This document shows, in pieces, positions 9,155-61,036 of a stretch of 64,000 nt of DNA. Below the pieces are notes generated by a model that ran no database searches, was not told the origin of the DNA, and saw only the letters and a program-made list of their open reading frames with translations. The stretch comes from Thermoanaerobaculia bacterium (GTDB lineage: Bacteria > Acidobacteriota > Thermoanaerobaculia > Multivoradales > SZUA-115), in the NCBI GenBank assembly GCA_036274895.1, contig DASUEU010000058.1:84885-148884 (forward strand). Reading direction: 5' to 3'. The first letter of the stretch is position 1. Every line of letters begins with the position of its first letter. The position numbers were made by a program, and so were the translations under genes.

Positions 9155-9274
9155 GACTCACCTATGGTTCGCTACTAACCGCCCTTTGCCGTCGCCGAAC
9201 GTTCATCGCCTCACCGCCGCGCACCAGCGCGGGCAGTGCAGGCAGTGGTTGGGCAACTCTAGATGACGTCAGGT

Positions 9275-10405: not shown

Positions 10406-10472
10406 CTTCCCCCTTCCAATATCTAGCCTCTCAGAGTGTTGAGCTCTGTCGCCCAACGTTTGAGCTGAGGCG

Positions 10473-10559
10473 CCCGCAACGGCAGGCCGCCTTGGCCGGG
10501 CAGCCGAGAATGGCCGAAGGCTGAGCGGCTGCCCGGCCAAGGCGGCCTGCCGTTGCGGG
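10473..10559. repeat. perfect 34-bp inverted repeat (19-nt loop)
   Basis: cccgcaacggcaggccgccttggccgggcagccg at 10473-10506 is exactly the reverse complement of 10526-10559. Confidence 0.9.
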
Positions 10560-10591
10560 TCGCATCGAGCGAAGGGTTAGGCATCGCCGGG

Positions 10592-11596: not shown

Positions 11597-11972
11597 GTGG
11601 TTGGGTATGGCAGATCGCCCCGGGGGCCATCGAGGGCTCCCCGGAGACGCGCGGATTTCGGAAAGACGTGCGTTGGACGAAGCCGCGGGCCGCTGGCGCA
11701 GGTCTATGGAGTTTGAATCGAGCGCTGGTGAAGCGGCGCAGGGAGGGGGTCCTGGTCTGAGCCTCGCTCGCCGGGGCGCGGGTGCCGCGCCAGCGGGCGT
11801 GCCGAGCCTCCGGGATCTGATTCCTGCTGCTTAGCAGTTGCACGGTGGAGCGATTTTAGCACTGCGCACCTCCGGGCGCAGAGAGGCTTCCTGGGGCCCG
11901 AGCTGTGGGCCGAGCGAGGAGGGTTGGGATCATGGGGCAGCAGCTCCGGCGCCGGGCGGAGGGCGGGCGCGA

Positions 11973-34319: not shown

Positions 34320-34346
34320 GCCACCCGCCGGAAGGTGCCGCCGGAA

Positions 34347-44431: not shown

Positions 44432-45352
44432 GTGATGGCTCGTCCGCTGCGCTACACCGTCCCCGGATCCCTCATGGAGGTCACCATGCGAACCCTCCAA
44501 GGCAGGTTCCTGCTCAGACCCTCCACCCGGTTGAACCAGATCATCGCGGGCTGCCTGGGGCGAGCCCAAAAGCGCCATGGCATGGCGATACACGGCTGCG
44601 TCTTCCTCTCGAACCACTTCCATCTCTTGCTCAGTCCTTCGGATGCCCACCAACTCGCCCGTTTCATGAACCACTTCGCTTCGAAGCTCGCTCGGGAGGT
44701 GGCCAGGCTCTACGGCTGGCGGGAGCACGTGTGGGGACGCCGCTACCAGGCCATCCCGGTCAGCGACGAGGAGCCGGCTCAAGTAGGGCGCCTGCGCTAT
44801 CTCCTCGCGCACGGCTGCAAGGAGTCACTTGTCGAGCGCCCCGAGGACTGGCCGGGGGTGAACTGCGCTCGGGCTCTGGCAACGGGAGAGACCCTCTGCG
44901 GTGTCTGGCAGGACCGCTCGGCGGAGGCTGTCGCCCGCCACGAGGGTCGAGAGATCGATCCGTCGCGTTTCGCCGTGGCGGAAGAAGTGCGCCTCTCAGC
45001 CCTGCCCTGCTGGGCCCCCCTGTCGCCGGCTGAGTACCGGCAGCGCGTTCAGCAGCTACTGGAGGAGATCACGCACCACTACGCAGCCGAGCGAGCTCGC
45101 CAGGGCATCCGCTGCCTTGGCGCCCGGTGGGTGCTGCGCCAACACCCCCACTCTCGACCCAAGATCCTGCCGAGACGGCACGCACCGAGGATCCACGCGT
45201 TCACCTCCGAGGCCAGGAGGGCCTTTCAAGAGGCCTATCGAGCCTTCGTCCACACCTTTCGACTTGCTGCGCGGCGACTGCGGGCAGGTGACCTGGCCGT
45301 CCGGTTCCCGCCGTGGAGCTTTCCCCCACCTCTGCCCCTGCCCACCGGCTGA
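44432..45352 (+). CDS. IS200/IS605-like Y1 HUH transposase (RAYT-like)
   Basis: N-terminus MARPLRYTVPG.. and HUH motif FLSNHFHLLLSP. The Tyr motif HVWGRRYQAIPV resembles the RAYT WQRGYY block. Confidence 0.6.
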   Translation: MMARPLRYTVPGSLMEVTMRTLQGRFLLRPSTRLNQIIAGCLGRAQKRHGMAIHGCVFLSNHFHLLLSPSDAHQLARFMNHFASKLAREVARLYGWREHVWGRRYQAIPVSDEEPAQVGRLRYLLAHGCKESLVERPEDWPGVNCARALATGETLCGVWQDRSAEAVARHEGREIDPSRFAVAEEVRLSALPCWAPLSPAEYRQRVQQLLEEITHHYAAERARQGIRCLGARWVLRQHPHSRPKILPRRHAPRIHAFTSEARRAFQEAYRAFVHTFRLAARRLRAGDLAVRFPPWSFPPPLPLPTG

Positions 45353-46159: not shown

Positions 46160-46203
46160 GCGGTCGTCGCCCAGGACGCGAGGTCTCCCAACTCGGCGGT
46201 CAC

Positions 46204-46264
46204 CCAAGTCGGCTGGCACCTTTGGATTGGGGTTCCCCTGGGGTTCCCCAAGTCGGCTGGCACC
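46204..46264. repeat. tandem pair of the dispersed motif (reverse orientation)
   Basis: ccaagtcggctggcacc at 46204-46220 and 46248-46264, separated by ttggattggggttcccctggggttcc. Confidence 0.8.
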
Positions 46265-46276
46265 TCTTGTGGGGCG

Positions 46277-47692
46277 TCAGGCCGCTTGCCAGCAGGTGTG
46301 GAAGGCCAGATTCATCGGCTTCGGTGCCGTCAGCCGCGCCAGCGGCGCCGCCCCGGGCTCGGCGAAGGCGTCGAGCAGCAGAAAAGTCGTGGTCATCGTC
46401 GCCACGTCCAGCTCCGGCACCAGCACCACGCCCGTGCTCCCCAGCCCCGCCACGAAGGCAGGCTCTGCCGCTAGGTAGCGGCCGGGCGCCGGGGCGTACA
46501 TCTCGGTCAGCCGCCCCTCCTGCCAGTCGCCTCTCACCAGCCGGTCGAGGAACTTCCTCCCGTTCCGGCCCGTGTGCGCCACGCTCAGCATCCAGAACCA
46601 GCGGTAGCCTTTCCCGGCCAGGTGGGGGTCGATCGCCGCGAAGTCCGCCGCCTGAGCGAAGGGCAGCTCCCGGCGTGAGAGCAGCCGCCCCGCCCTCGGG
46701 TCGACCACCAATCGCACCGGCCTGCCCGGCTCGACGTCGACGAACAGATCCGGCAAGGGCTGGTAGTCGGGATAGACCGGCTCCGAGAGCTCCAGCAGAT
46801 CGACCACCAGGTTCTCTCCCTGCTCGAAGGCGTTGATGTGGTGCAGGCAGTAGCCCTGCCCCACCGGCACCACACTCGCCAGGTCGCCGCTCTCACGGTC
46901 GAAGATCCACAGCCGGCTGCCCCGCTCGGGATGCCAGCCGAGGGCCTCCTGGACCGACGCGCCCCGCTCGAGGAAGGCCTTCATGTCGAGCAAGTAGGGC
47001 GCCACGTGGACGGCTGCCCAGCGGGGCGAGAGGCTGAAGTCGTGGACCGAAGCGGGCAGGTCGAGGGCGTGTCGCCGGCGGTAGATCAGTTGGCCGTCCG
47101 CACTGAAGCGGTAGAGGGTCAAGGTGGGCTCGGTGGTGGCGAAGGAGATCCCGAAGTTGACCATCTCGCCGTTGTCGGGATCGAAGTTCGGGTGTGCTGA
47201 GAAAGGCGAGATGTGGTTCAGCCGGCGCTCGAAGGTGTGCTCGCCGAGGGTCTCGAGGGACGTCGGGTCGAGCTCCCAGGGCAGGCCCTGCTCGCCAAAG
47301 GCCAGGAGCTTGCCGGCAAAGGGATAGACGCTGACGTTCACCGGCGTCGCCAAGGCCACGTTGCGCACCAGCCGGTCGCCTTCGAAGGAGGTGCCGAAGG
47401 TACGGTAGAGAAAGCGCCCGGCCGCCTCCTCCTCGACCTGCTTCGGGCTGGCCAGCCAGCGGGTGGTGAGCTGCGCCCCTGCTGCCGAGATGCACAACCG
47501 GAAGACCATGCCATCGCCGTCCAGCCAGTGGCGGTAGCGCATCTCGCCGCGACGGAAACGGGCCGGGCCGATGCCGAGATAGGAGCCCGAGAGCCAGTCC
47601 GGCAGACGGCCCTCCACGGCCACCTCACCCTGCTGCTCCTCCGGGATGAGCTCGAACGCCTTTTCGAGGCCGGGCGCGAAGTCCGCGCTCAT
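46277..47692 (-). CDS. carotenoid cleavage oxygenase / RPE65 family dioxygenase
   Basis: Starts MSADFAPG at ATG 47692, overlapping the upstream stop as ATGA. It has the CCD blocks RYRHWLDGDGMVF, AHPNFDPDNGEMVNFG and GYCLHHINAFE (Fe-ligand His). Confidence 0.8.
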   Translation of the reverse strand: MSADFAPGLEKAFELIPEEQQGEVAVEGRLPDWLSGSYLGIGPARFRRGEMRYRHWLDGDGMVFRLCISAAGAQLTTRWLASPKQVEEEAAGRFLYRTFGTSFEGDRLVRNVALATPVNVSVYPFAGKLLAFGEQGLPWELDPTSLETLGEHTFERRLNHISPFSAHPNFDPDNGEMVNFGISFATTEPTLTLYRFSADGQLIYRRRHALDLPASVHDFSLSPRWAAVHVAPYLLDMKAFLERGASVQEALGWHPERGSRLWIFDRESGDLASVVPVGQGYCLHHINAFEQGENLVVDLLELSEPVYPDYQPLPDLFVDVEPGRPVRLVVDPRAGRLLSRRELPFAQAADFAAIDPHLAGKGYRWFWMLSVAHTGRNGRKFLDRLVRGDWQEGRLTEMYAPAPGRYLAAEPAFVAGLGSTGVVLVPELDVATMTTTFLLLDAFAEPGAAPLARLTAPKPMNLAFHTCWQAA

Positions 47693-49458
47693 ACGGTCAC
47701 CAGCTCCTCCGCGGCGGCAGGCACCGCCTTGCGCGGCCGGGCCGCCCGGAAACGCTCCATCGGGCAGGTGGCGAAGCTCCACTCGTGGCGACCCGCCGGC
47801 CGGCCGGCGGCCGCCCAGCGCTGGCGGATGGCTTCCGGATCGAAGGGGTAGTCGGCCAGGTCGATGGCCGCCACGAAGCCCGGGTGGTGCAGGGCCTCGG
47901 CGTCGCCCACCACCACCGAGCTCAAGTAAGCCAGGATGTACCGGCAGAGTTCCTCCAGGTTGGCCAGCTGCTCGCCCAGCACCTCTTTGCCCTCGTCAAC
48001 CGAGATGCCGACCTTGTAGAAGGTCTTCTCAGCCCGGGCGAGGGGAGCCAGCTCGAAGAAGTCGAGGAAGATCGGTTCGGCCGGCGTCTCCAGGTGGTCC
48101 TTGGCCCAGCGCGCGTAGGCGGAGGTGAAGCGCATCACCGTGCGGTTCAACGGGCCGAGCCGATTGAACCGGTTGAAGAAGTTAAGCAGGAAGCGGCGAT
48201 CCGTGAAAAAACCGTTGATGAACGGGAAGGTCAGGAAGGCGAAGTAGACGGTGAGCTCCCAGGTGTACTTGAGCGAATACGCCTCCTGGTCGCCGAGCAC
48301 GTTGTAGCTGTCGGCGTAGCTCGGCACGTAGGCCTCGTAGATCGCCCGCATCAAGGAGTCGTAAGCGCGAACCTTCTCCGCGAGCAGCTCCGGATCGCGG
48401 GTGGCGATGGCGTCGACGATGACCGTGGTGTAGATCGAGATGAGGTCGCCGCCCGGGCTGTAGAGGGGGTCGGAGAACCGTCCCGCCATGCCGGCCAGGG
48501 CCCAGCGTTGCGCCGAAATGGTCTGCGCGCAGTCGTAGCCGTAGTCGGGGATGCCACCGAAGTCCAGCACTTTCCGCTGGGGCAGGTCGCGCGCGAAGAG
48601 GGGAAACTCCTTGCAGATCCAATCGATCAGCTTCTGCGCCGAGGACACCGTTCGATGATCGATCACCTCGCGGTCGAACACCAGCCCGATGGAGGTTATG
48701 CCCTGGAGCGGGATGACCCACACCCAGAAGCCCTCACCACAGAAGTGATTGGTGGCGAGCCAGAAGGGCAAATGGCCGAGGGCGGAGCGCGACGGATGCC
48801 GCAGCATCTCGGTGCGGGACAGCCCGGTCAGCTTCTCGATGTTGAGCAATCCTTCGACCCAAAGGAAGACCGAGCCGTGACGGATGTTGCCCGGTCGACC
48901 CAGCCCGAGCTTCCTCGCCAGGATGCGAGCACGCCCGCTGCAGTCCACCACCCACCGGGCCGTCACCTCCCGCGCGCCATCGGGGCTGTCGAAGCGCACG
49001 GTGTGGGGGCCTTCTTGAGCCAGCTCGACGTCGACGTTGACCGACTGCCCTCGGAAGGTGAAGCGCGAATCGGCGAGATTGCGGGCGAACAGCTCAGCCT
49101 CGATCTTGTTGCGGTCCAGTTGGTAGCTCGCAATGTTGGACAAGGGCCGTGGGTAGGACTGTCCGACGTGCTCGAAGGCATCGTTGGGCAGCCCCGCCGA
49201 CTTCCAGTAGAAGCGGAGGTTGTACTTCATGAAATGCTCGCGGAGCAGGTATTCCTCGAGATCCAGGACCTTCGAGAAGTAGTAGCCGGAGACCTGGACC
49301 GTGGCTTCCCCCACCTTCTGGTTAGGGGCCGGCAGCTCGGCTCTCTTGTCGAGGAGGAGGACGGATTCTTCCGTCTCGATCAGGAGCTGGCGGGCGAGGG
49401 ACTGGCCGGCGAGACCCCCGCCGAGGATCACGACGTCGACGTGCTCTCGGGTCGGCAT
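47689..49458 (-). CDS. flavin-dependent halogenase (tryptophan-halogenase family)
   Basis: FAD site VVILGGGLAGQ and the halogenase-specific WxWxIP motif (GFWVWVIPL). A GGAGG RBS precedes ATG 49458. Confidence 0.8.
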   Translation of the reverse strand: MPTREHVDVVILGGGLAGQSLARQLLIETEESVLLLDKRAELPAPNQKVGEATVQVSGYYFSKVLDLEEYLLREHFMKYNLRFYWKSAGLPNDAFEHVGQSYPRPLSNIASYQLDRNKIEAELFARNLADSRFTFRGQSVNVDVELAQEGPHTVRFDSPDGAREVTARWVVDCSGRARILARKLGLGRPGNIRHGSVFLWVEGLLNIEKLTGLSRTEMLRHPSRSALGHLPFWLATNHFCGEGFWVWVIPLQGITSIGLVFDREVIDHRTVSSAQKLIDWICKEFPLFARDLPQRKVLDFGGIPDYGYDCAQTISAQRWALAGMAGRFSDPLYSPGGDLISIYTTVIVDAIATRDPELLAEKVRAYDSLMRAIYEAYVPSYADSYNVLGDQEAYSLKYTWELTVYFAFLTFPFINGFFTDRRFLLNFFNRFNRLGPLNRTVMRFTSAYARWAKDHLETPAEPIFLDFFELAPLARAEKTFYKVGISVDEGKEVLGEQLANLEELCRYILAYLSSVVVGDAEALHHPGFVAAIDLADYPFDPEAIRQRWAAAGRPAGRHEWSFATCPMERFRAARPRKAVPAAAEELVTV

Positions 49459-49483
49459 GACAGCAACCTCCTGGACGTTGGCC

Positions 49484-50728
49484 TCACGCCGCGTCGCTGC
49501 GCGTGAGAATCAGAGCCGCCGCGTGGCCGTCGAGGCCGAGCGCGGTGGCGAGCACCGTCCGCGCGTTGACGGCCCGGGGCCGGTTCGAAAGGGAGAGCGC
49601 GAGGCCCGGCTCCGGTTCGCCGAGACCGCCGATGCCGGGAAGTCGGCCGGAGGACAGGATCTCCAGCAGGGCAAGGGCCTGGAACCCGCCCGAGGCTCCG
49701 AATGCCTCGCCGAGGGCTCCCTTGATGGCCGTGGCGGGCACCGCCTCGGCCGCTTCCTCCAGGGACGAGGCGAGGCCCAGGGCCTCGGCGAGGTCCAGCT
49801 CCAGACTGCCCGACCCGCCGGTGACCACGGCCCCCAGGTCCCCGGGCCCGAGGCCCGCATCGGCGAACGCCGCTCGCACCGCCCGGCCCAGGGCCGAGGC
49901 GGCGCTCCACGGGTCCTGGCCCATCGATGGATCGAAGGCGGAAGCGTGGCCCACCACCTCCCCAAAGAGGCTGGCACCTCTGGCGCGGGCCCCTTCGAGC
50001 TCTTCGAGCAGCACCAGCGCGGCCCCCTCGCCGAGGGCGAACCCTCGCCGCCCGGCCCCGAACGGCACCGGTGAGCTCCCGGCCGCGGCCAGCAGGCCGG
50101 CACGACCGTAGGTCAGCCCGGCCTCCGGCGACAGCTCCTCCGCCCCCCCGGCCAGCAGCGCTTCGGCGTGCCCACCGCGGATCAGATCCGTGGCGTGACC
50201 GATCGCCGCCAACCCCGCCGTGGCCCCCCCGGCCATCGTCGAGTTGAGTCCCACCAGACCGTGCCAGATGGCTGTCTGCCCAGCCGGGGCGTTGATCACG
50301 CTGTTGGCGAAATCCAGGGGCTTGACGTAGTTCGGGCCGGCGGTCAGCCCGCGGCGATCGAACTCGGCGATGGTCTTGAGGCTGCCGAACTGGGTGCCCA
50401 GAACCAGCCCCACCGGCTGCGTCCGGCTCTCGACCTGGGCCAGACCCGCCTCGGCGAGAGCCAGTCCGGCAGCTGCCGCGGCCAGCCGCGAGGTCCGGTC
50501 GAGGGGCCGGACGTTGCGGTCGCCGAAGTAGGTCTCCGGCGCGAAGCCCCAGACCTCGCCGGCGACCACCGCGGCACAGCCGTTCCAGGTCGCCAGCGCC
50601 GACGGCCCGAGGCCCGACCGGCCCTCCTCGAGCGCAGCGGCGAAGGCCCCCGGCGTGTCCCCGAGGGGTGAGACGAGGCCCCGTGCGGTGACCACGACGC
50701 GGCGGCGGGAAGCGTTCAGGGCCGCCAC
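49484..50728 (-). CDS. ketosynthase-like chain-length-factor (KS beta, no active-site Cys)
   Basis: KS fold (..RRVVVTARGLVSPLGD..) with AGG at the position aligned to the catalytic TACAAG Cys. A GTG start overlaps the KS alpha 3' end. The listed ORF extends further in the same frame. Confidence 0.65.
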   Translation of the reverse strand: MAALNASRRRVVVTARGLVSPLGDTPGAFAAALEEGRSGLGPSALATWNGCAAVVAGEVWGFAPETYFGDRNVRPLDRTSRLAAAAAGLALAEAGLAQVESRTQPVGLVLGTQFGSLKTIAEFDRRGLTAGPNYVKPLDFANSVINAPAGQTAIWHGLVGLNSTMAGGATAGLAAIGHATDLIRGGHAEALLAGGAEELSPEAGLTYGRAGLLAAAGSSPVPFGAGRRGFALGEGAALVLLEELEGARARGASLFGEVVGHASAFDPSMGQDPWSAASALGRAVRAAFADAGLGPGDLGAVVTGGSGSLELDLAEALGLASSLEEAAEAVPATAIKGALGEAFGASGGFQALALLEILSSGRLPGIGGLGEPEPGLALSLSNRPRAVNARTVLATALGLDGHAAALILTRSDAA

Positions 50729-51936
50729 TTGATCATCACCGTCGAAGCGTTGTTGCCGCCGAAGGCGTAGGCATTGTTCATCGCCACCGCCACCGGCATC
50801 TCCCGCGCCTCGTTGGGCACACAGTCGACGTCGCACTCGGGATCCGGCTCCTCGAAGTGGATGGTCGGCGGCACTCGGTCCTCGGCCACGGCCAGAGCAC
50901 ACACCGCCGCTTCGATCGCCGACGCCGCGCCCATGGTGTGGCCGAGCATCGACTTGATCGAGGACATCGGCACCCGCGGCGATCGTTCGCCGAACACCCG
51001 CTTGACGGCGATCGACTCCAGCCGGTCGTTGGTCGGCGTGCCGGTGCCGTGGGCGCTGACGTAGGAGACGTCCTCCGGCGCCAGGCCCGCCATACGTAGG
51101 GCCCGCTCCATCGCCCGCGCCGCCCCCTCGCCTTCCGGATGGGCGGCGGTCATGTGGTGGGCGTCGCAGGAGAGGCCGTAGCCCGCCACCTCGGCGATGG
51201 GCTCGACGCCGCGGGCGAGGGCTCGATCGAGGGGCTCGAGGACCAGCACCGCCGCCCCCTCGCCGGGGATCATGCCCTGACGGTTCTTGTCGAAGGGCCG
51301 GCAGACATCCGGAGCGATCGCCCCCAGACGGGCGAAGCCGGTGTAGGTGATGCGCGAGAAGCAATCCGCACCGCCCGCCAGCATCAGCTCCGCCCGGTCG
51401 TTGACCAGTGCGTCGTAGGCGTAGGCGAGAGCGTAGTTGCCGGCCGCACAGGCGGTGGGGATCATGGCGTTGACGCCGGCGAAGCCCACCTCCGCGGCGA
51501 CGTGCGCGGCGATGAGGTGGCAGGGGTACCGGCGCACGAAGCCGTGGCCGGCCTGGGCGAGATCCTCCGCCACCAGGGCATCGTCGAGCCGCTCCACCTC
51601 CTGAGGCTCACCGGAGGTGGTACCCATCGCCACACCGGCCCGCGCCGGATCCAGTGCTTCCGGATCGAGCCCGGCATCCGAGAGGGCCAGTCGCGCGGCG
51701 GCAGCGCCGAGCTGCGAGGCACGACCGATCTGCGCCGGGACGAGGCGCTTCAGATGATCGTCGGGGCGGAAGCCCTTGATCTCGCCCCCCTGGTGCACGG
51801 GGTGGCGCGATGTGTCGAAGGACTCGACCGTCGAGGTGCCACGCCGGCCGGCGAGCAGGGCCTGCCATGCCGCCCGGCGGCCGATGCCCACCGAGGTCAC
51901 CATGCCGATGCCGGTGACCACGATTCGACGGCTCAT
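50716..51936 (-). CDS. beta-ketoacyl-ACP synthase (KS alpha)
   Basis: Carries the Cys-His-His triad: IPTACAAGNY, SAHGTGT and SMLGHTMGAAS. Confidence 0.85.
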   Translation of the reverse strand: MSRRIVVTGIGMVTSVGIGRRAAWQALLAGRRGTSTVESFDTSRHPVHQGGEIKGFRPDDHLKRLVPAQIGRASQLGAAAARLALSDAGLDPEALDPARAGVAMGTTSGEPQEVERLDDALVAEDLAQAGHGFVRRYPCHLIAAHVAAEVGFAGVNAMIPTACAAGNYALAYAYDALVNDRAELMLAGGADCFSRITYTGFARLGAIAPDVCRPFDKNRQGMIPGEGAAVLVLEPLDRALARGVEPIAEVAGYGLSCDAHHMTAAHPEGEGAARAMERALRMAGLAPEDVSYVSAHGTGTPTNDRLESIAVKRVFGERSPRVPMSSIKSMLGHTMGAASAIEAAVCALAVAEDRVPPTIHFEEPDPECDVDCVPNEAREMPVAVAMNNAYAFGGNNASTVMIKWRP

Positions 51937-52211
51937 GCCAGAGCTGCCTCGGGCTGGGGCTGGGCGAGCTCGCTCAGCCGCTCGAGCACCAGCGCCACGG
52001 TTTCTTCCACGTTCGAAAGGGAGCGCATACGCTCCTCTGGCAGGTTGAGCTTGAAGGCGTAATCGACGTCTACGCCGATCTCGAGGAGCGAAAGGGAGTC
52101 GAGGTTGAGATCGTCGATGTATGAGTCAGTGTCACCGATCTTGGCGGGATCGAGGTTGGTGACGTTGGCGATGATCTCTTTGATCTTGGTGCGGATTGAC
52201 TCGACTTCCAT
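51933..52211 (-). CDS. acyl carrier protein
   Basis: 92 aa with phosphopantetheine site DLNLDSLSLLEI. An AGGAGAG RBS precedes the start, and its stop is coupled to the KS start as ATGA. Confidence 0.8.
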   Translation of the reverse strand: MEVESIRTKIKEIIANVTNLDPAKIGDTDSYIDDLNLDSLSLLEIGVDVDYAFKLNLPEERMRSLSNVEETVALVLERLSELAQPQPEAALA

Positions 52212-52467
52212 GGGTTCTCTCCTCTGACTTTGCGTCCATGATAACCGACTGGCGAATCACGGACGTTGCCCGGCGTGCAACTCGGCATAGCTCGCGAAAA
52301 ATCGTTCTTTTCGCGCTTCGACGATCAATGCGACCACAGAATGATCAGATTTCTTGTCCGCTCTCGGACCAGCTCGCGTGTCACGACCTCGACAGCGCCA
52401 GCGATCGAGATAGGTTTCTCCCAGGAAGATTCGTTACAGCGAGGAAAAAGGGGACATCGGAGCTCGA
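52212..52467. promoter_or_regulatory. AT-richer intergenic region upstream of the ACP-KS-CLF-halogenase-CCD operon
   Basis: 256-bp lower-GC spacer (..cgaaaaatcgttcttttcgcgc..) directly 5' of the ACP gene. Confidence 0.3.
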
Positions 52468-55400
52468 TCAAGGCCATCCGAGCCCCTCGAGCTCGGCCGC
52501 CGGGCGGCCTTCGACGCCGAGATCGACCACCAGGGTGGCGTCGTCCGAGGAGAGCTCGACCTCGCGCAGGCAAGCCCGATCCCGGCGTGGATCGGCAAAG
52601 ATGACTCGATAGCGGCCCGGGGCCAGCCCGGCGAAAGCGAAGCGCCCCTCCGGATCGGTCTGACCCACGACCATCGAGCCGTTCGCCCCCAACGCGCCGA
52701 CGGTGGCTTCCACGAACGGGACGCCGTTCGACAGCAGCAGGCCGGCCAGACGCAGACCTTCGGCGAGCACCAGCTCGAGCTCGACGAGACGCTGCCCGGC
52801 CCCGATCTCGACCGTCGCCTCGGTCCCCTGGTTGGTGGCGGCGCTGACCACCGAGACCCGCCAGGTGCCCGGGGCAAGCCCCTTCATCTCGAAGCCTCCC
52901 CGGGCGTCGAGCCTGGCCCAGGCCGTCTGACCGTTTTCGTCGGCGGCCGTCACCTGCACGCCCGCCATCTGCGCGGCTTCGAGGCCCACCACTCGTCCCG
53001 CGAGCGTCGCACCTCGCGCCAGGACCACCTCGAAGTCCGCGATCGGCCGCTCGCCGACTTCCAGCGGCAGGCCTTCGCTGGGAACCAGGAAACCCTGGGT
53101 CTGGACCATCAGCCGATAGGTGCCGGGTGGCACGGACGGCATGCGGAACTGGCCGTCCGGGGCCGACATGGTGTGGAGGGCGGCACCGGAACCCTCCGGC
53201 TGGGCGAGCAGCAGCAAGGCCCCCCCCACGCCCGCACCCTCCTCGTCCACGACCCGACCTGCGACCGACACGCCCCGGCGCAGCACGAAGTCTCGCTGCT
53301 GGGTGCCGGGCCGGATGTCGACCTCGTGGGTCTCGGCGACGAAGCCTTCGGCCGCGACCCTGACCGAGATCTGCCCCACCGCGAGGCCGGCCAAGCGGTA
53401 GCGGCCCGAGGCATCCGTGGCGCCGCCTGCGGTCCCCAGCATGGTCACGGTCTCGGACTTCGTCTGGGCGAAGATCGCGGCCCGGGGATGGGGGCGGCCC
53501 TCCTCGTCGACCACCGTGCCCTCGAGCATGGCCCCTGGCTGCAGGCGCAGGACGATGCCGGCCCGGCGCTCGCGGGGACCCAGCTCCAGTCCGGCGAGGG
53601 CAGCGGGCAAGTAGTCGTCCGCGGTGGCCGCCAGCTCATAGCTGCCGGGCTCGATCCCCGAGAGGACGAACTCGCCATTGCTTTCGGTGGGCTCGGCCGC
53701 GAGGATCGGGATGCGAAAGCGCGGACTCGCCTCCCCGGCGCCGGGCCCGGCGGGGAGCAGGTGCACCGTGGCGCCCTCGACCGGTGCCCCGGCCCCGTCC
53801 ACCACCTGCCCCGAAACCTGCGCTCCCGGGTCCAACACCAGCCGCAGGGGCCGCTCGGGCGGGACTTCCACGCCCGCCGCCCGGGTGACCCGGTAGCCGG
53901 TCTTGCGGGCCGTCAGGTCGACCGTGCCTCCAGCCGGGAGCCCGCCGATCTCGAAGCGCCCGTCGGCACCGGTCGAGGCGAAAAAGGAGGCCTCCTCTCC
54001 CGGGGACACACCGAGCACCGGAGCGGAACCGGAGGCGAGCTTGGGCGTGGCCTGGAGGTCGACGCCGGCGACCGGCTCGCCGTCGCGGTCGACGACCTTG
54101 CCTTCCAGCCGGGCTCCGGGGTGAAGGGTGATCACCCCGAGATCGGCTACCCCCGCCTCGCTCGCGACCGGCTGCCGCCGGATCTGCCCGGGAGCGAAGC
54201 CGGGCGCCTCGGCCCTGAGATCGACCAGGTCGCCGGCCAGGCCTACCAGCTGGTAGGCCCCCGACTCGTCCGTGGTGGCTCGGGTCTCTGGCTTCGCCGG
54301 CTCCGGGGAGACCCAAGCGAGATCGTCCTCGAGGTGCAGCGAGGCGTAGACGGTCGCACCCACCACCGGGCGGCCCTCGCGGTCCTCCACCCGGCCGTGG
54401 CCCTCGACCCGGGAGCGCAGCACGATGCGCAGCCCCGTGTGGCTGCCGCCGGCGTCGAGGCCGGCCAGACGGATCGGCTCGGCCCAGAAGCCTTCGACCT
54501 CCACCCCCACGGCATATCGGCCTCGGGGATCCAGGCCTACGAGCGCGAAGCGACCGTCCGGCCCGCTGCGACCCAGTGCCATGGCATCTCGGGCGTCGAC
54601 TCGCAGGCCGCCCCAGCCGGCCAGGACCAGCACGTCGGGCACCGCGACGCCCTCCCCGTCGACCACCACCCCCTCGATCCTCACCGCCGGTCGCAGCAGG
54701 AGAGAGACTTCGGAGCCGTCCTGCCGGCTCGGCCGTTCCTGATCTGGATGGAAGCCGGCCGCCGCGGCCGCCAGGGAAGCCGCGGCGCCCTCGGGCCGCA
54801 CCGCCAGACGGAAGCGGCCGCCCCGACCGGAGACGGCATGGGACCCGTGTTGTCCCGGCGCCCACACCACCGCCCCTGCCACCCCCTCGAGGTCGGGCAG
54901 AGACCTCACCCGGCCCTCCCTCACCACCAGGGCCGGCAAGGTCACCGGCTCGGGCCTCGGCTCGGCCTCGGTCTCGAGCGGCGGCAGAGTCAAGGCCAGC
55001 TCTTCGCCGTCCGGCCCCACCAGTAGCCGCTCGAGGGGCCGGCCGGCCTGGCCGCGCAGCACCAGCAGGCCGTCCGGTCCGGTGGGCCCGGCCACAGGCA
55101 GGTCGGCGAGGAGGGCGAGGACTCCCGCCAGGGGCCGACCCCGGGGGTCGCGAGCCACCACGGGCCTCTCCCGCCCGGGCTCGAGAGTCAGCGCCACCTT
55201 CTCGCAGGACGGCGGCAGGCTCTCAAGCAGGGGAGCCTTGCCCGGTGCCTCCACCGCCACGCTCACCGCCACCCCCGCCGCGCACGGCAGAGCGAGGCGC
55301 CCGGCCTCGTCGCTGGCGAGGAAAACGGGGGCGAGCAGGGTCTTGAGCCTCTGCGAAGGGCCCAGGTGCCGGAAGTCGGCCGCGCTCTCCCCCAAGGTGC

Positions 55401-55881
55401 CAGCCGAGTTGGGGGCCGCCTCGAAAGTGGCGAGGATCCGCGCTCCGGCCAGGGGCTCGCCCCTCTCGTCGCGCACGGTCAGCGTCCTCCTCCCGGCCCG
55501 CGGCAGCGAGAAGGGAGCCAGCTCCCGCTCTTCCACCAAGGGCGTCAGGAAGAGGGCGAGGCCCAGGTGGTCGGGGGCCCCCACCGTCAGCCGCCACAGG
55601 CCCGGCTCGGGAGCCAGGATCTCGAAGCGGCCGTCGCGGCCGGCCCGCGAGCGGGCCACCGGCTCGGCCACGATCGGCAACACCGGCGCCAGCTCCACCG
55701 AAGCTCCGGCGAGCCCTTGGCCGTCCGGCCCGGTAACGACGCCGGAAACGGGGATCGGCTCGGCCAAGACCGCGAGGGGGAAGAAGGAGAGGACAAGTAG
55801 CTGGGCGAGGACGGTGCGGGCGAGGCGGCGGTGGCAGGACACACGATCCCCCTTCCTTCGAGAGCGAGAGAATACGCCCAT
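52468..55881 (-). CDS. giant secreted protein of tandem CarboxypepD_reg/prealbumin-like domains
   Basis: 1137 aa with a signal peptide and ~10 repeats of the G.VVD..G.P..GA.V pattern. Confidence 0.65.
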   Translation of the reverse strand: MGVFSRSRRKGDRVSCHRRLARTVLAQLLVLSFFPLAVLAEPIPVSGVVTGPDGQGLAGASVELAPVLPIVAEPVARSRAGRDGRFEILAPEPGLWRLTVGAPDHLGLALFLTPLVEERELAPFSLPRAGRRTLTVRDERGEPLAGARILATFEAAPNSAGTLGESAADFRHLGPSQRLKTLLAPVFLASDEAGRLALPCAAGVAVSVAVEAPGKAPLLESLPPSCEKVALTLEPGRERPVVARDPRGRPLAGVLALLADLPVAGPTGPDGLLVLRGQAGRPLERLLVGPDGEELALTLPPLETEAEPRPEPVTLPALVVREGRVRSLPDLEGVAGAVVWAPGQHGSHAVSGRGGRFRLAVRPEGAAASLAAAAAGFHPDQERPSRQDGSEVSLLLRPAVRIEGVVVDGEGVAVPDVLVLAGWGGLRVDARDAMALGRSGPDGRFALVGLDPRGRYAVGVEVEGFWAEPIRLAGLDAGGSHTGLRIVLRSRVEGHGRVEDREGRPVVGATVYASLHLEDDLAWVSPEPAKPETRATTDESGAYQLVGLAGDLVDLRAEAPGFAPGQIRRQPVASEAGVADLGVITLHPGARLEGKVVDRDGEPVAGVDLQATPKLASGSAPVLGVSPGEEASFFASTGADGRFEIGGLPAGGTVDLTARKTGYRVTRAAGVEVPPERPLRLVLDPGAQVSGQVVDGAGAPVEGATVHLLPAGPGAGEASPRFRIPILAAEPTESNGEFVLSGIEPGSYELAATADDYLPAALAGLELGPRERRAGIVLRLQPGAMLEGTVVDEEGRPHPRAAIFAQTKSETVTMLGTAGGATDASGRYRLAGLAVGQISVRVAAEGFVAETHEVDIRPGTQQRDFVLRRGVSVAGRVVDEEGAGVGGALLLLAQPEGSGAALHTMSAPDGQFRMPSVPPGTYRLMVQTQGFLVPSEGLPLEVGERPIADFEVVLARGATLAGRVVGLEAAQMAGVQVTAADENGQTAWARLDARGGFEMKGLAPGTWRVSVVSAATNQGTEATVEIGAGQRLVELELVLAEGLRLAGLLLSNGVPFVEATVGALGANGSMVVGQTDPEGRFAFAGLAPGRYRVIFADPRRDRACLREVELSSDDATLVVDLGVEGRPAAELEGLGWP
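55394..55410. repeat. dispersed motif copy (inside giant CarboxypepD_reg gene)
   Basis: ggtgccagccgagttgg. Confidence 0.7.
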
Positions 55882-55980: not shown

Positions 55981-57570
55981 CTACCTCTCGTCCGGCGGCG
56001 GCGGGGCCGCCGGGGTCTGGACGTCGGTCCAGACGTCCGGGTCATTGCGCGTGCCGACCAGGTTGCGGTCGTCGGCCCACTGGATCACGGCGCCGTCGGC
56101 CGTCACCACCGACTGGTCGTAGTCGCCGTGGTAGCAGGTGGCGAGGTTGGGATCGAGGCGGATCGGGCTGTTGACGTCGGTGATGCGCACGTTCGGCCCC
56201 CAGGTCAGGCCGCCGTCGTTCGAGGTGCGCTTGAAGTAATCGACGCGGACGTTCTGGGCGTGGTTGCGCCGGTCGTACCAGGCAGTGACGATGGTCGTGC
56301 CATTCGACTGGATGGTGGGGAAGAACTGGTCCTCGGCGTTGACGTCGTTGAGCTTGAATTCCGCGCTCCAGGTCGAGCCGCTGTTGGTCGAGCGCTTGTA
56401 GTAGACGTTGACCACGTCGCCGTTGTTGAAGGCGTTCGGGTCGCGGCTGTAGACCACGTGGAGGGTGCCGGCGCTGTCCACCGTGATCTGCGGCGAGGCC
56501 AGGTAGCGAATGTTGCCCTTCAAGGCCGGCCGGCCGCAGGAGTTGGTGGCGGCGCTCTGCCGCGGGCTGACGGCATTGACCAGCGGGCTGGTGACCGCCG
56601 CGTAGGTCAGGCCGCCGTTGGTCGAGCGGGCGACCTCGACGGTGATGTTGCCGCTCGGGAAGCTGGCGTAGCGCAGCCAGGCCACGAACACGTCGCCATT
56701 CGGCGCCACCGCCGGCCAGGCACCCTGCACCAGGCCCGCGGCGCTGATGTTGGTGGCCGCCGACCAGGTCAGGCCGCCGTCCACCGAACGCGAGCCGCGG
56801 ATCGGCGTACCGGCCACGCCGAAGTCGGTCCACACCAGGTAGAGGTTGCCGTAGTTGGGGCTGGCCGGGTTGTTGTCGACCGCCAGCAGCTCCTTGTCGT
56901 CACTGCCGGTCGAGGGGGTCGAGATCTGGGTGAAGGTCTGGCAGTCGTCCGTCGAGCGCCACACCGCCAAGCCGCCCCCCGCGTCCAGGGTGGCCAGGTA
57001 GAAGTTGGCGTCCACCTGCCGCCAGACCACGCTGGGGTCGCCGAAGGAGTTGCCGCCCACGGCGCCGCGGTCGTTCCAGGAGACGCCGCCGGTGGTCGAG
57101 CGCGAGAAGCCGGTGAAGCCGCCGCCGCCGGTTGACCCGAAGAACTCCCACGAGTCGTTGAACGAGGAGCAATAGGTGCCGGTGTTGGGGTTGTAGGCGA
57201 TCGACGTCTCGCTCTGGGTGGTCGAGGTGCCGGTCTCCCCCGCCGAGTTGTTGACCTGCACGTCCACCGCCTCGATGGTGGCGAAGTCCGGATCGCCCTG
57301 CTTCTCGAGGGCCGGCACGTAGCGCTTGGCCAGCTCGGCCTCGCGCCCGCAGGACCACGCCAGGTTGAAGTACAGCCCGTCCATCCGCCCCACGGCCTCC
57401 TTGCTGTCGAGCAGGCGGCAGGACTCGGCCGGCGCCTGCCGGATGATCGTGCGCGGGGACGGGCGCGGCGCGGCGGCGGGCTCCTGGGCGAGCAGCGCAC
57501 TCGCCAGCGGACCTGCGGCGAGGGCGGCCAGGGCGAGGACAAGGGTGGAAGTCGGCTTCTTGCGCAGCAT
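55981..57570 (-). CDS. BNR/Asp-box repeat beta-propeller protein (sialidase-like)
   Basis: Starts MLRKKPTSTLVLALAALAAG at ATG 57570 with a GGAGG RBS. Repeated SxDxGxTW boxes are present (SVDGGLTWS, STNGGLTYA, STNSGSTWS, TSNDGGLTWG). Confidence 0.7.
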   Translation of the reverse strand: MLRKKPTSTLVLALAALAAGPLASALLAQEPAAAPRPSPRTIIRQAPAESCRLLDSKEAVGRMDGLYFNLAWSCGREAELAKRYVPALEKQGDPDFATIEAVDVQVNNSAGETGTSTTQSETSIAYNPNTGTYCSSFNDSWEFFGSTGGGGFTGFSRSTTGGVSWNDRGAVGGNSFGDPSVVWRQVDANFYLATLDAGGGLAVWRSTDDCQTFTQISTPSTGSDDKELLAVDNNPASPNYGNLYLVWTDFGVAGTPIRGSRSVDGGLTWSAATNISAAGLVQGAWPAVAPNGDVFVAWLRYASFPSGNITVEVARSTNGGLTYAAVTSPLVNAVSPRQSAATNSCGRPALKGNIRYLASPQITVDSAGTLHVVYSRDPNAFNNGDVVNVYYKRSTNSGSTWSAEFKLNDVNAEDQFFPTIQSNGTTIVTAWYDRRNHAQNVRVDYFKRTSNDGGLTWGPNVRITDVNSPIRLDPNLATCYHGDYDQSVVTADGAVIQWADDRNLVGTRNDPDVWTDVQTPAAPPPPDER

Positions 57571-57760
57571 TCCTACCTCCTTCGACAGATGCCGCCGGGT
57601 GGCGGCGGCGGTTCGACGAACCCTCGGCAGTCGAGGGGATCTCTCTTGGATAGCGAAAGCAACCCCCGCAAGAGATAGGAATAGCCAACTCACAACGTCA
57701 CGATCTGCAGAATGATCGCTAGACACAGAGTGCAGCCGTGGTCCCGAAATGGGGCAGCCG

Positions 57761-60700
57761 TTACGGCGCGGCGCGTGGCAGTTGGGAGAGGTCCAGCTCC
57801 AACGTCTGGTCAGCGTCGAGCGTGAGCACCTGCTCGTAGGCCGCGGCCATCCGCTCGCCCAAGGTGCTGAGGACCATTCGATACCGCCCCGGCTTGAGCC
57901 CCCGCAAAGCGAAGCGACCCTTCTCGTCGGTCATCGTGCTCGCGCGTCCTGCCTCGCCCTCGAGCGCGAGGTGCATCCGCTCGACGGGCGCCGTCCCCCA
58001 CAGCAGCTGGCCGGACAGCGACAGCCCCGGCGCGAGAGGCAGCGTCACCGACGCCTCGAGCGCCCCTTCGGCGAGCTCGACGGCGGCGGACCCGCTCAAG
58101 TTCTGGGCGCCCGGCACCGCCTGCACCTGGTACGAACCGGGAGCCAGGCCCTCGAGCCGGAAGCGGCCTCGAGCGTCGACGGCGGCCGAGGCCCGAGGGC
58201 CCTTCCCATCGAAAGCGGCGACCCGCAGCCCGACCGTTTCCGCGGGCTCGACACCGGTGACGGCCCCGACGATCGCCCCACCCCGGTCGAGCACCAGCTC
58301 CAGATCCTCCACCGCCTGGCCTCCCACCTCGACTGAGGTGGGGCCGGCCGGAGCCCGATAGCCCTCGCGCTGCGCCGCGATCACGTAGCGCCCCGGCGGC
58401 ACGCCGCCGATGCTGAACGAGCCCTCCCGGCCGCTCTGGATCATGGCCAGGAATGGCCCGCCGGCTTGCTCCTCCAACACCACGTTGGCACGGGGCACGG
58501 GGACCCCCTCGGCGTCGATCACCCGGCCTCGCACGGTCGCGCCCCGCCGCAGGGTAAAGTCGAGCCGGCCGCCGGTTTCGGTGACCTCCACCGACTTCTC
58601 GACCGACAGCCACCCCTCGGCGCCGGCGGCCAGCTGCTGATGGCCCGGAGCGATCCCCTCCAACCGATAGCGCCCCGCGCCGTCGACCCCCGTGCCACCA
58701 TCGCGGATCAGCTCTCCGGACAGCTCGCGGACCTGGCTGACCCACGCCCCCAGGACCGGCTGGCCGGCCTCGTCCAGCACCTGCCCCTCGAGCACGGCTC
58801 CTTTCGAGAGCACCAGGTCGAAGCCCTCGACCTTCGAACCGGCTGGCACCTCGATCGTGCGCGGGGAGGCCGGCAGGTAGCTGCGCGCGCTCGCCGCAAC
58901 GCGGTATGGACCCCCGGCCAGCTTCTTGACCTCGAACCGGCCCTCCTCGTCGGTGCGAGCCCGTGCCGCTCGCCACGGCCTCGACCGCCGCAGCTCCGGC
59001 GGCAGGGGCGAGACCGGATCGACCTCGACCTCTGCTCCAGCGATCGGCTCGCCGCCCGCCGCGACGACCCGGCCCAGCAGCCGTGCCGCCGGTTCCAGAA
59101 CCACTTCGAGAGGCGAGTCTGGAAGGGGCACTTCGACGTCCTCGGTGGTGGCGCTCAGGTAGTCATCGTGCTCGACCCATACCGAGATCCGCGCCCCGCT
59201 CGGCAGCTCCCCGAAACGGAAGCGACCCTCCTCGTCCGTGAAGCGGGGTAGTAAGGCCCGGATTGGCCGAGGCGTGCCTTGCGTGAGCCCGGGCAACCCT
59301 CGGCTCAGCCGGTAGCCGACCCTCGCCCCGGCGACGGGCAAGCCCGAGCGGTCTACGACCCGACCTGAGACGACGGCCTCCGGGCCCAGGCGCAGGGTAC
59401 CGAGGTCCAGGGGACCTCGGCCGGCATCGACCTCGCGATCCGCCTCGATGGCGGGGGCGAAGCCCTCAGCCCGGGCGATCACCTCGAGCCGCTGCGCCGG
59501 GGGCAGGGCCTCGACGCGGAAGCGGCCTTCCTCTGCGGAAACCACGGGCGCTCCTGGCTCAGTGCCCATCCGCAGCTCGCGCTCTTCGGCGCCGGACGGC
59601 CTGGCCGTCACGTAGACCTCCGCTCCGGCCACCGGTCGGCCTTCGGGATCCACAACCAGGCCGAAGCCGGCGCGTTGGGCGGTGAGCACCAGCCGTAGCC
59701 CGGTGACGGGCTCGCCGCTCTCGAGGCCCTCGACCACCAACGGCTTGCCCACGAACCCTGGAGCCGAGGCCGAAAGCAGCGGCCAGAAGCCAGGAGGCAC
59801 TCCCCTGATGTGGAATCGGCCGTCGGCGGTGGAGATGGCTCGGTGGGCCGTGAGCCGGCCCTCGGGGCCCAGGGTCACGATGGCTCCACGAACGGGCGCA
59901 CCTTTCTCGTCCACGACCTCCCCTGCAAGGGAAGCGGCCGGGCGGAGAGCCAGGATCAGCTCGCCCTCGGTCATCGGGGAAGCGGGCAGCACCCCCGGCG
60001 CGAATCCGGGCGCTGCCGCGCGCAGCTGCACCGATCCCACCGGGGCGCTCAGGCGGAAGCCTCCCCGCCGATCGCTGAGCACGTAGCCGGCGAGGATGCC
60101 TGCCCCCTCGAGCCAGACCACGGCCCCGGGCAGCGGTTCGTAGGGCTCGGCGACCATCACCCGGCCGGTGACCTCGGGGACGGGCTCGAGCGTCACTCGC
60201 CACGGAGTCGGGGGCGCCGGCGAAGGGCCGACCTCGGCGCGCCAGCCGTCTGGGGCCTGGAGTGAAAGGGCTGCCGCTCGGGCGGGGTCGAAGCGCAGGG
60301 CGAGCCGGCCGTCCCTGTCACTCGGTCCGGCGACCTTCACCCCCTCGAGCCGCGCCTCGACTCCCTCGACGGGTCGGCCTCGCGGCCCCACCAGCTCGAC
60401 GGTGCGCTCGACGCCGCCGGTCACGGTCCAGGAAGCGGCGTCGCAGCCGTCCGGAAGATCCTCCGCCCGCGGCGCGAGGCCGTCGGCAGCCACCACCAGG
60501 CGCCACCTCACCGCTTCCGCACAAGGCAGCTCGATCGAGCCGTCGCTGCCAGTTGTGCCGGAGATCTCGGCCGGCCTGGCCTCGCCGCGGGCTCGAGGCC
60601 AGGGAGAGCCGGGTCTGGGCTGGACTTCGGCGACCGGTTGGGCCAACCACCGGGCGCCGGAGAGGGCGCGGCCGGCTGCGTCCCGCAGCGTCAGGGGTCG

Positions 60701-61036
60701 CAGCCTCGCTCGCGGCAGCTCGAGGGGCGCGAGGAGGGTCTCCTCGACCAGAGGCACCAAGCGCAGCTCGACGGGAAGGTGCCCTCCGGCCCCGGCCACC
60801 AGCCGCCACAGGCCGGAGCCGGGGGCTTCGAGCTGGAAGCGGCCCTCACGGTCGGTGGTCGCCCGGGCCGCCGGCGCAGGCCGGCCCGCCTCGATCGCCG
60901 CGAGCGTCACCGTAGCCCCGGCCAGGGGCTCACCATCCGGCGCTACCACGGTGCCGGAGACGGAGATGGGTTGAGCGGACAGTGCGCCCGAGAGGAAGAG
61001 GAGGGCCAAGAACGACCGGCTGGCGATACCCGTCAT
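57761..61036 (-). CDS. giant secreted protein of tandem CarboxypepD_reg/prealbumin-like domains (paralog)
   Basis: 1091 aa with a signal peptide [23 protein letters not shown]. It has the same repeat architecture as 52468..55881. Confidence 0.65.

Follow-up and report, generated by a model that had tools for sequence, protein, structure and literature searches.

A compact ketosynthase, halogenase and cleavage oxygenase operon from a Thermoanaerobaculia genome and its relatives in uncultured Acidobacteriota

The stretch of DNA analysed here (the window; 64,000 nucleotides of contig DASUEU010000058.1 from a Thermoanaerobaculia bacterium) carries on its minus strand a five-gene operon for an acyl carrier protein (ACP), a ketosynthase (KS), a KS-like partner resembling a chain-length factor (CLF), a flavin-dependent halogenase, and an RPE65-type oxygenase of the carotenoid cleavage dioxygenase (CCD) kind. 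We read this operon as the compact representative of a conserved system, as yet uncharacterised, whose carriers are mostly Acidobacteriota. The sequence-only reading of this DNA had treated the halogenase and the CCD as tailoring additions to a polyketide synthase (PKS). Comparison across genomes reversed that order, in that the halogenase-CCD pair is the constant part and the KS, CLF and ACP are the variable one. Based on the sequences, the cassette may build an unsaturated acyl chain of short or medium length, to be halogenated and oxidatively cleaved, a reading to which we give a probability of roughly 0.45. Our literature searches found no description of the halogenase-CCD linkage or of this combination of genes.

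The halogenase-CCD pair in its gene settings

Relatives of the halogenase were collected by scanning one genome per species, which yielded 164, and the best 80 loci were kept. Open reading frames (ORFs) were called in 85 loci and clustered by all-against-all BLASTP, and the counts of gene architectures given below rest on this clustering of our own. Clusters c1, c3, c17, c18, c20, c27, and c47 were antisense shadows and were dropped. The adjacency of halogenase and CCD was counted with trimmed queries only, which kept out long alternative-frame ORFs in DNA of high guanine-plus-cytosine (GC) content. Among the best 80 of the 164, most carriers were Acidobacteriota (Thermoanaerobaculia, Pyrinomonadaceae/Blastocatellia, Vicinamibacterales, Holophagales, and Sulfotelmatobacter-like), and a few belonged to Gemmataceae, Pirellulaceae, Poribacteria, Latescibacterota, and Zixibacteria. 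In 63 of the 79 loci that could be assessed, the next gene downstream of the halogenase on that strand was a CCD of the same clade, and in 71 of the 79 such a CCD was found no more than 6 kb away. When the look-up was reversed and started from CCD homologues, the halogenase was found immediately upstream in 3 of 3. The halogenase-CCD pair is therefore the invariant core of the system, with KS, CLF, and ACP as one of several alternative sets of partners.

The pair occurred in four settings. The first was the minimal cassette, ACP-KS-CLF-halogenase-CCD, which was present in the window and in L001, L005, L016, L022, L032, L041, L047, L059, L065, and L168, and probably in L067, L068, and L073 as well. 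With at least 10 such loci in several unrelated flanks, the minimal cassette moves as a unit between genomic contexts. The second, in about 18 loci, was an extended operon in which further genes sat between CLF and halogenase, the order being ACP, KS, CLF, a 3-hydroxy-3-methylglutaryl-CoA (HMG-CoA)-reductase-like gene, a CrtI-like desaturase, variable FG-GAP/ASPIC genes, a PlsC/DAGAT-type acyltransferase directly upstream of the halogenase, halogenase, and CCD, with a redoxin sometimes preceding the halogenase. The suggestion, made from the window alone, that the operon may work with enzymes encoded elsewhere fits these relatives, which insert an HMG-CoA-reductase-like protein, a desaturase, and an acyltransferase at this point. 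The third setting, in about 35 of the 85 loci, was a patatin-type cluster that had neither KS nor ACP and consisted of ABC1/UbiB-like kinases, a patatin (lipid acyl hydrolase), halogenase, CCD, and DinB, along with a cation/proton exchanger, a FeeM-like N-acyl synthase, an FAD-Rieske protein, and redoxins. The fourth, seen in few loci, was the bare pair. Two hybrid loci (L028 and L078) joined the extended and the patatin-type modules, and a neighbour-joining tree of the halogenases did not cleanly part the architecture types.

Several further genes were observed beside the pair. The patatin-type clusters contained recurrent families with homologues in about 35 loci, namely c21 (about 1,146 aa; for example L004 13923-17363), c5 (about 425 aa, with up to seven tandem paralogues; L033 1724-3001), c12 (about 438 aa; L075 8582-9898), and c32 (about 243 aa; L034 1543-2271), none of which gave a Pfam or NCBIfam match. 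In two Pyrinomonadaceae-type loci, L085 (3250-4845) and L087 (3502-5202), a vanadium-haloperoxidase-like gene (DUF6851, PAP2, and VCPO_2nd) was located just upstream of the ACP-KS-CLF-HMG-CoA-reductase-desaturase genes, as were a redoxin and a two-component pair of the HisKA_3/GerE type; its product would give the system another halogenating enzyme, unrelated to the first. This gene was not seen in the other loci, where the upstream flanks were mostly too short for a judgement. In the minimal cassette of L168, an alpha/beta-hydrolase gene (9518-10354) overlapped the CCD stop by 4 nt and could be the release enzyme missing from the window operon.

The operon and its enzymes

The sequence-only reading had described five tightly coupled, co-directional genes behind an AT-richer leader of 256 bp, and the coordinates, the junctions, and the base composition all came out as it had them. 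Head to tail on the minus strand, the genes encode the ACP (51933-52211; 92 aa), the active KS (50716-51936; 406 aa), its dead partner (49484-50728; 414 aa), the halogenase (47689-49458; 589 aa), and the RPE65/CCD oxygenase (46277-47692; 471 aa), and the Pfam and NCBIfam matches were concordant with all five assignments. At NCBI, proteins 100% identical to the KS and the CCD are recorded for a metagenome-assembled Thermoanaerobaculia genome, whose entries include HEX4954915.1 (the 589-aa halogenase) and HEX4954917.1. The ACP stop and the KS start overlap as ATGA, CLF and KS overlap by 13 nt (GTG start of the CLF at 50728), CLF and halogenase are 25 nt apart with GGAGG in the spacer, and halogenase and CCD share an ATGA, indicative of translational coupling. 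The untranslated leader 5' of the ACP gene (52212-52467, minus strand, 256 nt), presumed to be the promoter region, had a GC content of 55% versus 69% in the operon and about 70% in the window. A promoter and terminator scan of the leader returned no sigma-70 consensus match and no terminator-like site, and Rfam gave no credible match in the operon or leader, the one hit elsewhere in the scanned stretch being a chance match far below threshold.

The operon had also been described as having no acyltransferase (AT), ketoreductase (KR), or dehydratase (DH) gene, which held for the operon and for all sizeable ORFs of the 64 kb; in Pfam scans of every such ORF, no AT, KR, DH, enoyl reductase, thioesterase, cyclase, or flavin reductase was found. 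Likewise, tblastn of the 64-kb window detected no homologue of the partner genes of related loci, including patatin, acyltransferase, ABC1, and desaturase. Supply of the flavin reductase in trans is common for flavin-dependent halogenases.

The halogenase contained GGGLAG (residues 13-18), Lys78 in MKYNLRF, FWVWVIP (244-250), and FSDPLYSPGG (328-337). Residues K78, W245, W247, I249, and P250 were invariant in 64 halogenase homologues, in which all four motifs were kept with little or no change, and Lys78 aligned with the lysine in PIKRGG of CndH, which we take to be the catalytic lysine of that enzyme. The WxWxIP motif had been named as diagnostic before any alignment was made, with the biosynthetic reading made to hang on conserved Lys/Glu catalytic residues as well, and the motif and the lysine are both kept. 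The best sequence match to solved halogenases was E = 6.5e-10. The AlphaFold2 model had a predicted local distance difference test (pLDDT) score of 92.2, and in Foldseek searches of the PDB ranks 1-45 were all flavin-dependent halogenases except 3nix, an uncharacterised flavoprotein/dehydrogenase, with monooxygenases ranking lower. CtcP, PltM, ChlB4, CmlS, PltA, RadH, FasV, CndH, MalA, Mpy16, and Bmp2 were among the matches. Over the query, the TM-score was about 0.55, since the conserved helical domain at the C-terminus (about 200 aa) aligned poorly. Judged by motifs and predicted fold, the protein is a bona fide member of the flavin-dependent halogenase superfamily that forms a separate clade. 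It has in common with the non-tryptophan halogenases CtcP, PltM, PltA, ChlB4, CmlS, CndH, RadH, and FasV the GxGxxG motif, the catalytic lysine, WxWxIP, FxDPxxSxG, and the fold (Foldseek E = 1e-22 to 1e-17), but differs from them in its sequence (17-21% identity, about 40 bits), in the extra helical domain, and in being almost always coupled to a CCD gene.

Homologues of the halogenase were 55-60% identical across Acidobacteriota and Planctomycetota. Among 1.84 billion representatives, the tight family comprised few clusters at 50% identity, and wider relatives of about 580 aa were found at 30-38%. The NCBI name of the window protein (HEX4954915.1) is 'lycopene cyclase family protein', and '2-polyprenyl-6-methoxyphenol hydroxylase-like' is the annotation of many homologues at JGI; anyone looking for halogenases by keyword would miss the whole family.

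The CCD matched the Pfam RPE65 profile over positions 6-468 of 469 (E = 9e-88, 296 bits). Its iron ligands His167, His217, His284, and His465, together with Glu134, Glu290, and Glu410, were at least 97% conserved in 71 halogenase-linked homologues, so that the full-length domain and the four histidines bear out the RPE65/CCD assignment first made. The best PDB match was the apocarotenoid-15,15'-oxygenase (ACO) of Synechocystis (E = 5e-42, 148 bits), with which the histidine motifs aligned. The halogenase-linked CCDs formed a clade of their own with 50-60% mutual identity. By alignment, the protein is thus placed as a bona fide RPE65 superfamily member in a separate clade that is genetically linked to the halogenase clade. 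The full-length domain, the four histidines, and the second-shell glutamates are common to ACO, to bacterial CCDs, and to lignostilbene dioxygenases; unlike these, the window enzyme scored far below every NCBIfam equivalog cut-off and had no carotenoid pathway encoded nearby.

The top NCBIfam matches of the CCD were lignostilbene dioxygenases (119 and 106 bits). These matches would suit a role in the catabolism or detoxification of aromatic alkenes taken up from outside (stilbenes from lignin, phenylpropenes of the isoeugenol type, or phenolics of plants and fungi), in which the halogenase would act on the phenol ring, the CCD would be a lignostilbene-type dioxygenase, and KS, CLF, and ACP would be neighbours with no part in that function. 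Phenols are the substrates of the enzymes structurally nearest to the halogenase, and the carriers are mostly soil Acidobacteriota, both of which are in keeping with such a role. We nevertheless regard it as quite unlikely. The lignostilbene scores were far under their cut-offs of 650-800 bits, with ACO ahead in the PDB search; the five genes are translationally coupled in an arrangement that recurs in unrelated contexts; and no aromatic-catabolism genes (vanillin dehydrogenase, ring-cleavage enzymes) were present in the loci surveyed.

The best PDB match of the KS was chain B of 9s5h (488 bits, E = 3e-145, 53.8% identity), followed by Iga11 (321 bits), FabFs (about 300 bits), and the actinorhodin KS (238 bits). 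The partner likewise matched chain C of the same entry best (212 bits, E = 1.5e-61, 32% identity), ahead of FabFs, and actinorhodin KS and CLF ranked under FabFs in these searches. The Cys-His-His triad read from the KS sequence stood (Cys163, His296, and His333). At the cysteine position of the partner, which had been read as AGG, the aligned residue was instead Ala, within M-A-G-G-A-T-A-G; the two histidine positions were Gly and Glu, as compared with Val/Asn/Glu at the three triad positions in 9s5h chain C. Glu was found at the second histidine position in 17 of the 18 dead partners scored, and Asp in the remaining one. The ACP contained Ser39 in a DSL motif and matched Pfam PP-binding (E = 1.7e-7); its PDB matches included AcpM, 7auf ('Similar to acyl carrier protein'), which is taken to be the anammox protein amxACP, and the ACP chain 9s5i_E.

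A neighbour-joining tree was built from the window proteins, acidobacterial homologues, the anammox amxFabF2/amxFabFmut pair, and a third lineage of low GC content, to which 12 canonical FabFs from contexts of the fabD-fabG-acpP type were added. Active KSs of the amxFabF2 type (those of the window, of Acidobacteriota, of anammox bacteria, and of the metagenomic locus L088) formed one clade that was sister to canonical FabF, and all dead partners formed a second. The tunnel residues that correspond to F135 and V139 of amxFabFmut were kept in the window partner (DFANSVIN) and in all acidobacterial partners. From scores, tree position, and conserved residues, the KS/CLF pair is assigned as a member of the amxFabF2/amxFabFmut-type heterodimer family. 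The sequence-only reading had named two outcomes that would tell against a biosynthetic role, namely clustering of the pair with FabF and absence of the operon in relatives; the pair fell outside canonical FabF and the five-gene order recurred.

Since a KS/CLF/ACP trio superficially resembles a minimal PKS, systems of a known kind were considered in turn, and taken together we hold them to be highly improbable. A housekeeping FabF was rejected: the KS scored 403 bits on the fabF equivalog TIGR03150, under the cut-off of 493.75, and although it passed the looser NCBIfam 'beta-ketoacyl-ACP synthase II' subfamily cut-off (395 versus 387 bits), it has a dead-triad partner, belongs to a clade apart from canonical FabF, and has no fabD-fabG-acpP neighbours as ordinary fatty-acid synthesis would. 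The phrase 'minimal type II PKS' did not survive in its aromatic sense, and a classical aromatic minimal PKS was rejected as well: the CLF has Ala and not Gln, the window encodes no cyclase or aromatase, and the actinorhodin KS score was far below that of 9s5h chain B. The proposed likeness to aryl-polyene clusters was also given up. In common with ishigamide Iga11/Iga12 (PDB 6kxd-f) and with ApeO/ApeC, the window has a KS, a non-Gln dead partner, and a discrete ACP, but Pfam scans of the window showed none of the other genes of such systems, that is, no KR, DH, aryl starter-unit enzymes, second ACP, thioesterase, or LolA/MMPL export, and for its KS, amxFabF2 is clearly a nearer relative than Iga11. 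We know of no CCD in ishigamide or aryl-polyene clusters. Ladderane biosynthesis is suggested by the anammox pair being the nearest to KS and CLF; however, the window has neither B12 radical S-adenosylmethionine (SAM) enzyme nor amxFabZ, and its host is a Thermoanaerobaculia metagenome-assembled genome (MAG) and not an anammox planctomycete.

Relation to anammox Cluster I and a proposed pathway

Cluster I of anammox bacteria corresponds to kuste3603-3608 in Kuenenia and, in Brocadia fulgida, to amxACP, amxFabZ, amxFabF2, amxFabFmut, a phytoene-desaturase homologue, and a B12 radical-SAM enzyme. The amxFabF2/amxFabFmut heterodimer works only as a pair, decarboxylating malonyl-ACP and forming acetoacetyl-ACP in vitro with no longer products, and in a crosslinking assay it preferred C6-C8 probes over C16; the tunnel residues F135 and V139 of amxFabFmut were mutated in the same study (bioRxiv 10.64898/2026.05.19.726425). 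We infer that PDB entries 9s5h and 9s5i are the Brocadia fulgida heterodimer of that preprint without and with ACP, because 9s5h chain C has Val at the cysteine position as the preprint reports, because 9s5i holds an ACP chain, and because the 91%-identical metagenomic locus L088, with a GC content of 40%, has ACP, FabZ, KS, dead KS, and phytoene-desaturase homologue in Cluster I order. The text of the preprint contains no PDB codes, and a literature search on 9S5H returned no paper.

The window operon and Cluster I have the same order of dedicated ACP, active KS, and dead-triad partner, and their partners have in common the replacement of the second His by Glu along with the F135/V139 tunnel residues. 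The window differs in that tblastn and Pfam scans of the 64 kb found no amxFabZ, B12 radical-SAM enzyme, or desaturase, in that it has a halogenase and a CCD, both of which are missing from the anammox-type locus L088, and in that its host belongs to Acidobacteriota rather than to the anammox planctomycetes. The CrtI-like desaturase of the extended acidobacterial loci scored 261 bits (33% identity) against the desaturase of anammox Cluster I and 85 bits against CrtI, and an ACP-KS-CLF-desaturase core is therefore common to Acidobacteriota and anammox bacteria. The anammox desaturase homologue itself did not desaturate phytoene (PMC4790861). A third, low-GC lineage (L092 5734-13328; also L090, L093, and L095) was observed to carry amxFabF-type clusters without halogenase or CCD, in the order CLF, FabG-like ketoreductase, ACP, KS, PP-loop ATPase-like, NAD-binding protein, and CrtI-like oxidase; at least three lineages thus employ the KS/CLF core, each with other partners. 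Automated tools would probably label the window locus 'ladderane', and such calls outside anammox bacteria have already appeared, unexplained, in genome-mining papers (PMC7298704, PMC8692599). Because the ACP-KS-CLF-desaturase core is orthologous, we tentatively suggest that the early Cluster I steps are not specific to ladderanes. A short conjugated-polyenoyl intermediate might be common to both groups, which would be cyclised by radical-SAM chemistry in anammox bacteria versus halogenated and cleaved in Acidobacteriota, yielding halogenated, cleaved polyene-type lipids or aldehydes; we think this possible, though well short of an even chance.

For the window cassette itself, the gene anatomy, the catalytic motifs, the family memberships, and the conservation of the gene set across species were observed directly, and the following steps would connect them. 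The dedicated ACP would be loaded with malonate by the FabD of the host. The KS/dead-partner heterodimer would then decarboxylate malonyl-ACP and carry out condensation, as its anammox homologue does in vitro, with the chain length presumably set by the tunnel of the partner. The beta-keto groups would be processed by housekeeping FabG and FabZ, borrowed from type II fatty-acid synthesis and with no full enoyl reduction, leaving an unsaturated and probably conjugated chain, on which the cluster-encoded CrtI-like desaturase may also act in relatives. With FADH2 from a reductase provided in trans, the halogenase would place Cl or Br on an electron-rich alkene or enol via a chloramine at Lys78. 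The CCD would cleave a C=C bond with O2 into aldehyde or ketone fragments, and this cleavage may also free the product, the operon having no thioesterase. Chain length, degree of unsaturation, the order of halogenation and cleavage, and the product would all follow from this scheme rather than from observation. A polyketide-derived rather than isoprenoid polyene is favoured because in the extended forms the CrtI-like desaturase and the ACO-like CCD share an operon with a fatty-acid-type KS pair, and because the second-best PDB match of the KS was the polyene-forming Iga11. In relatives, the HMG-CoA-reductase-like protein (thioester to alcohol) and the PlsC-type acyltransferase suggest that the chain is handled as a lipid ester. 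Halogenated aryl polyenes such as xanthomonadin and flexirubin exist, and halogenated polyene pigments esterified to lipids by acyltransferases may provide a precedent for the gene mix of the extended relatives.

A number of points weigh against this scheme. Neither the operon nor the extended clusters encode KR, DH, or thioesterase, and polyene formation therefore depends on borrowed enzymes. The solved halogenases most like the window enzyme act on phenols and pyrroles, not on alkenes, and the CCD scores do not cleanly part carotenoid-type from stilbene-type enzymes. The halogenase is about 55% identical in patatin-type loci that have no ACP at all; its substrate is therefore probably free or lipid-bound rather than ACP-bound, which would leave the minimal operon without a release step. 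All 80 kept carriers of the halogenase are uncultured MAGs, and the trees are neighbour-joining trees without support values. Moreover, the chain-length data from the anammox pair come from a non-physiological crosslinking assay described in a preprint (bioRxiv 10.64898/2026.05.19.726425).

Some of these points lead to lipid remodelling or turnover, in which the halogenase-CCD pair would act on existing lipids or polyenes (carotenoids, vinyl-ether or unsaturated membrane lipids, neutral-lipid esters) and either release fragments, halogenated or aldehydic, for use in signalling or as toxins, or serve in turnover, with KS, CLF, and ACP feeding in one special acyl chain. On this reading the system, as anammox Cluster I does, would belong with membrane-lipid metabolism more than with secondary metabolism. 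The patatin-type loci without KS or ACP, the hybrid loci that join all modules, the acyltransferase directly upstream of the halogenase in extended clusters, and the equal conservation of the halogenase with or without ACP are all consistent with it, as is the 70-80% identity of the KS among Acidobacteriota homologues across the phylum, which is more typical of core lipid genes. By contrast, the five genes of the window are translationally coupled and self-contained, patatin, acyltransferase, and ABC1 homologues were missing from the 64 kb by tblastn, and the cassette travels as one piece from one genomic surrounding to another, unrelated one. We know of no halogenated lipid from Acidobacteriota, and none was found in literature searches. 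We consider lipid remodelling somewhat unlikely, and yet the main rival to the preferred reading.

The missing KR and DH genes could also mean that no polyene is made. The KS/CLF pair would then stop at acetoacetyl-ACP or a short poly-beta-keto-ACP, the activated methylene would be chlorinated as proposed for CmlS, and the product would be a small chlorinated ketone, acid, or pyrone, the CCD acting on an enol or pyrone C=C or being unrelated. That the anammox heterodimer gave nothing longer than acetoacetyl-ACP in vitro agrees with this, and CmlS was both the top NCBIfam match of the halogenase and among its sequence and fold matches, but the NCBIfam match is weak (48 bits versus a cut-off of 900). 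The CCD is the most constant partner of the halogenase, so its substrate should be central to the pathway, and the CrtI-like desaturase and thioester reductase of relatives would make no sense for a C4 diketide. To our knowledge, no CCD cleaves enols or pyrones. Halogenation of a beta-dicarbonyl is thus unlikely, and we retain a halogenated and cleaved unsaturated acyl chain as the preferred reading.

Neighbourhood of the operon and wider meaning

In Pfam scans, the operon was flanked by unrelated genes, among them an IS200/Y1-type transposase-like gene, a beta-helix protein, and a TonB-type outer-membrane protein, and transporters, kinases, an aldehyde dehydrogenase, and others were found elsewhere in the window. 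Directly upstream, also on the minus strand, two proteins of about 1,100 aa with 9-10 carboxypeptidase-regulatory-like domains each (52468-55881 and 57761-61036) bracket a BNR-repeat protein (55981-57726). Of the other minimal-cassette loci, L001 and L005 alone have these giant repeat proteins beside the cassette. Downstream, the 3' boundary spacer that follows the CCD stop (46160-46276, minus strand) contains two perfect copies of a 19-mer, AGGTGCCAGCCGACTTGGG, resembling a repetitive extragenic palindrome (REP), at 46203-46221 and 46247-46265 on the minus strand. Eleven copies with at most 3 mismatches were counted in the window versus 0.02 expected, the others being at 34346, 34382, 41651, 42947, 44356, 55395, 1763, 2783, and 49961. 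The IS200/Y1-transposase-like gene, possibly a REP-associated tyrosine transposase (RAYT)-like one, lies nearby at 44432-45352, and homologues of it also flank the minimal cassettes in L001, L005, L041, and L047. In L001, from a 90%-related genome, HxlR and DinB genes (8355-9386) stand between the CCD and the next gene, at the position where the window has only the 117-nt REP-containing spacer; a recent indel at the 3' end of the operon therefore separates the two. Further away, the stretch at about 9000-11600 had a GC content of 56-57% versus about 70%, its ORFs 9275-10540 and 10592-11596 (minus strand) had no Pfam match, and it may be a horizontally acquired island.

The amxFabF-type family was already known, whereas a type II-style biosynthetic cassette with a halogenase-CCD pair as its core logic was undescribed in the literature searched. 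We found no paper on a halogenase joined to an alkene-cleaving oxygenase in one operon, yet the arrangement turned up in about 80 species-level genomes, which come almost without exception from uncultured Acidobacteriota. The KS/CLF pair is the nearest non-anammox relative of the heterodimer proposed to start ladderane synthesis, and the ACP-KS-CLF-desaturase core common to both groups contradicts the view of this gene set as unique to ladderane producers. If the early steps are indeed common, the acidobacterial systems would provide a tractable non-anammox model for the first steps of ladderane synthesis, and since the five-gene cassette can be expressed heterologously, the product of amxFabF-type heterodimers could be learned from it. 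Acidobacteriota are among the dominant phyla in soil, hardly anything is known of their chemistry, and the conserved halogenase-CCD pair may point to unrecognised halogenated lipids or volatile aldehydes in these bacteria and to a biological source of soil organohalogens.

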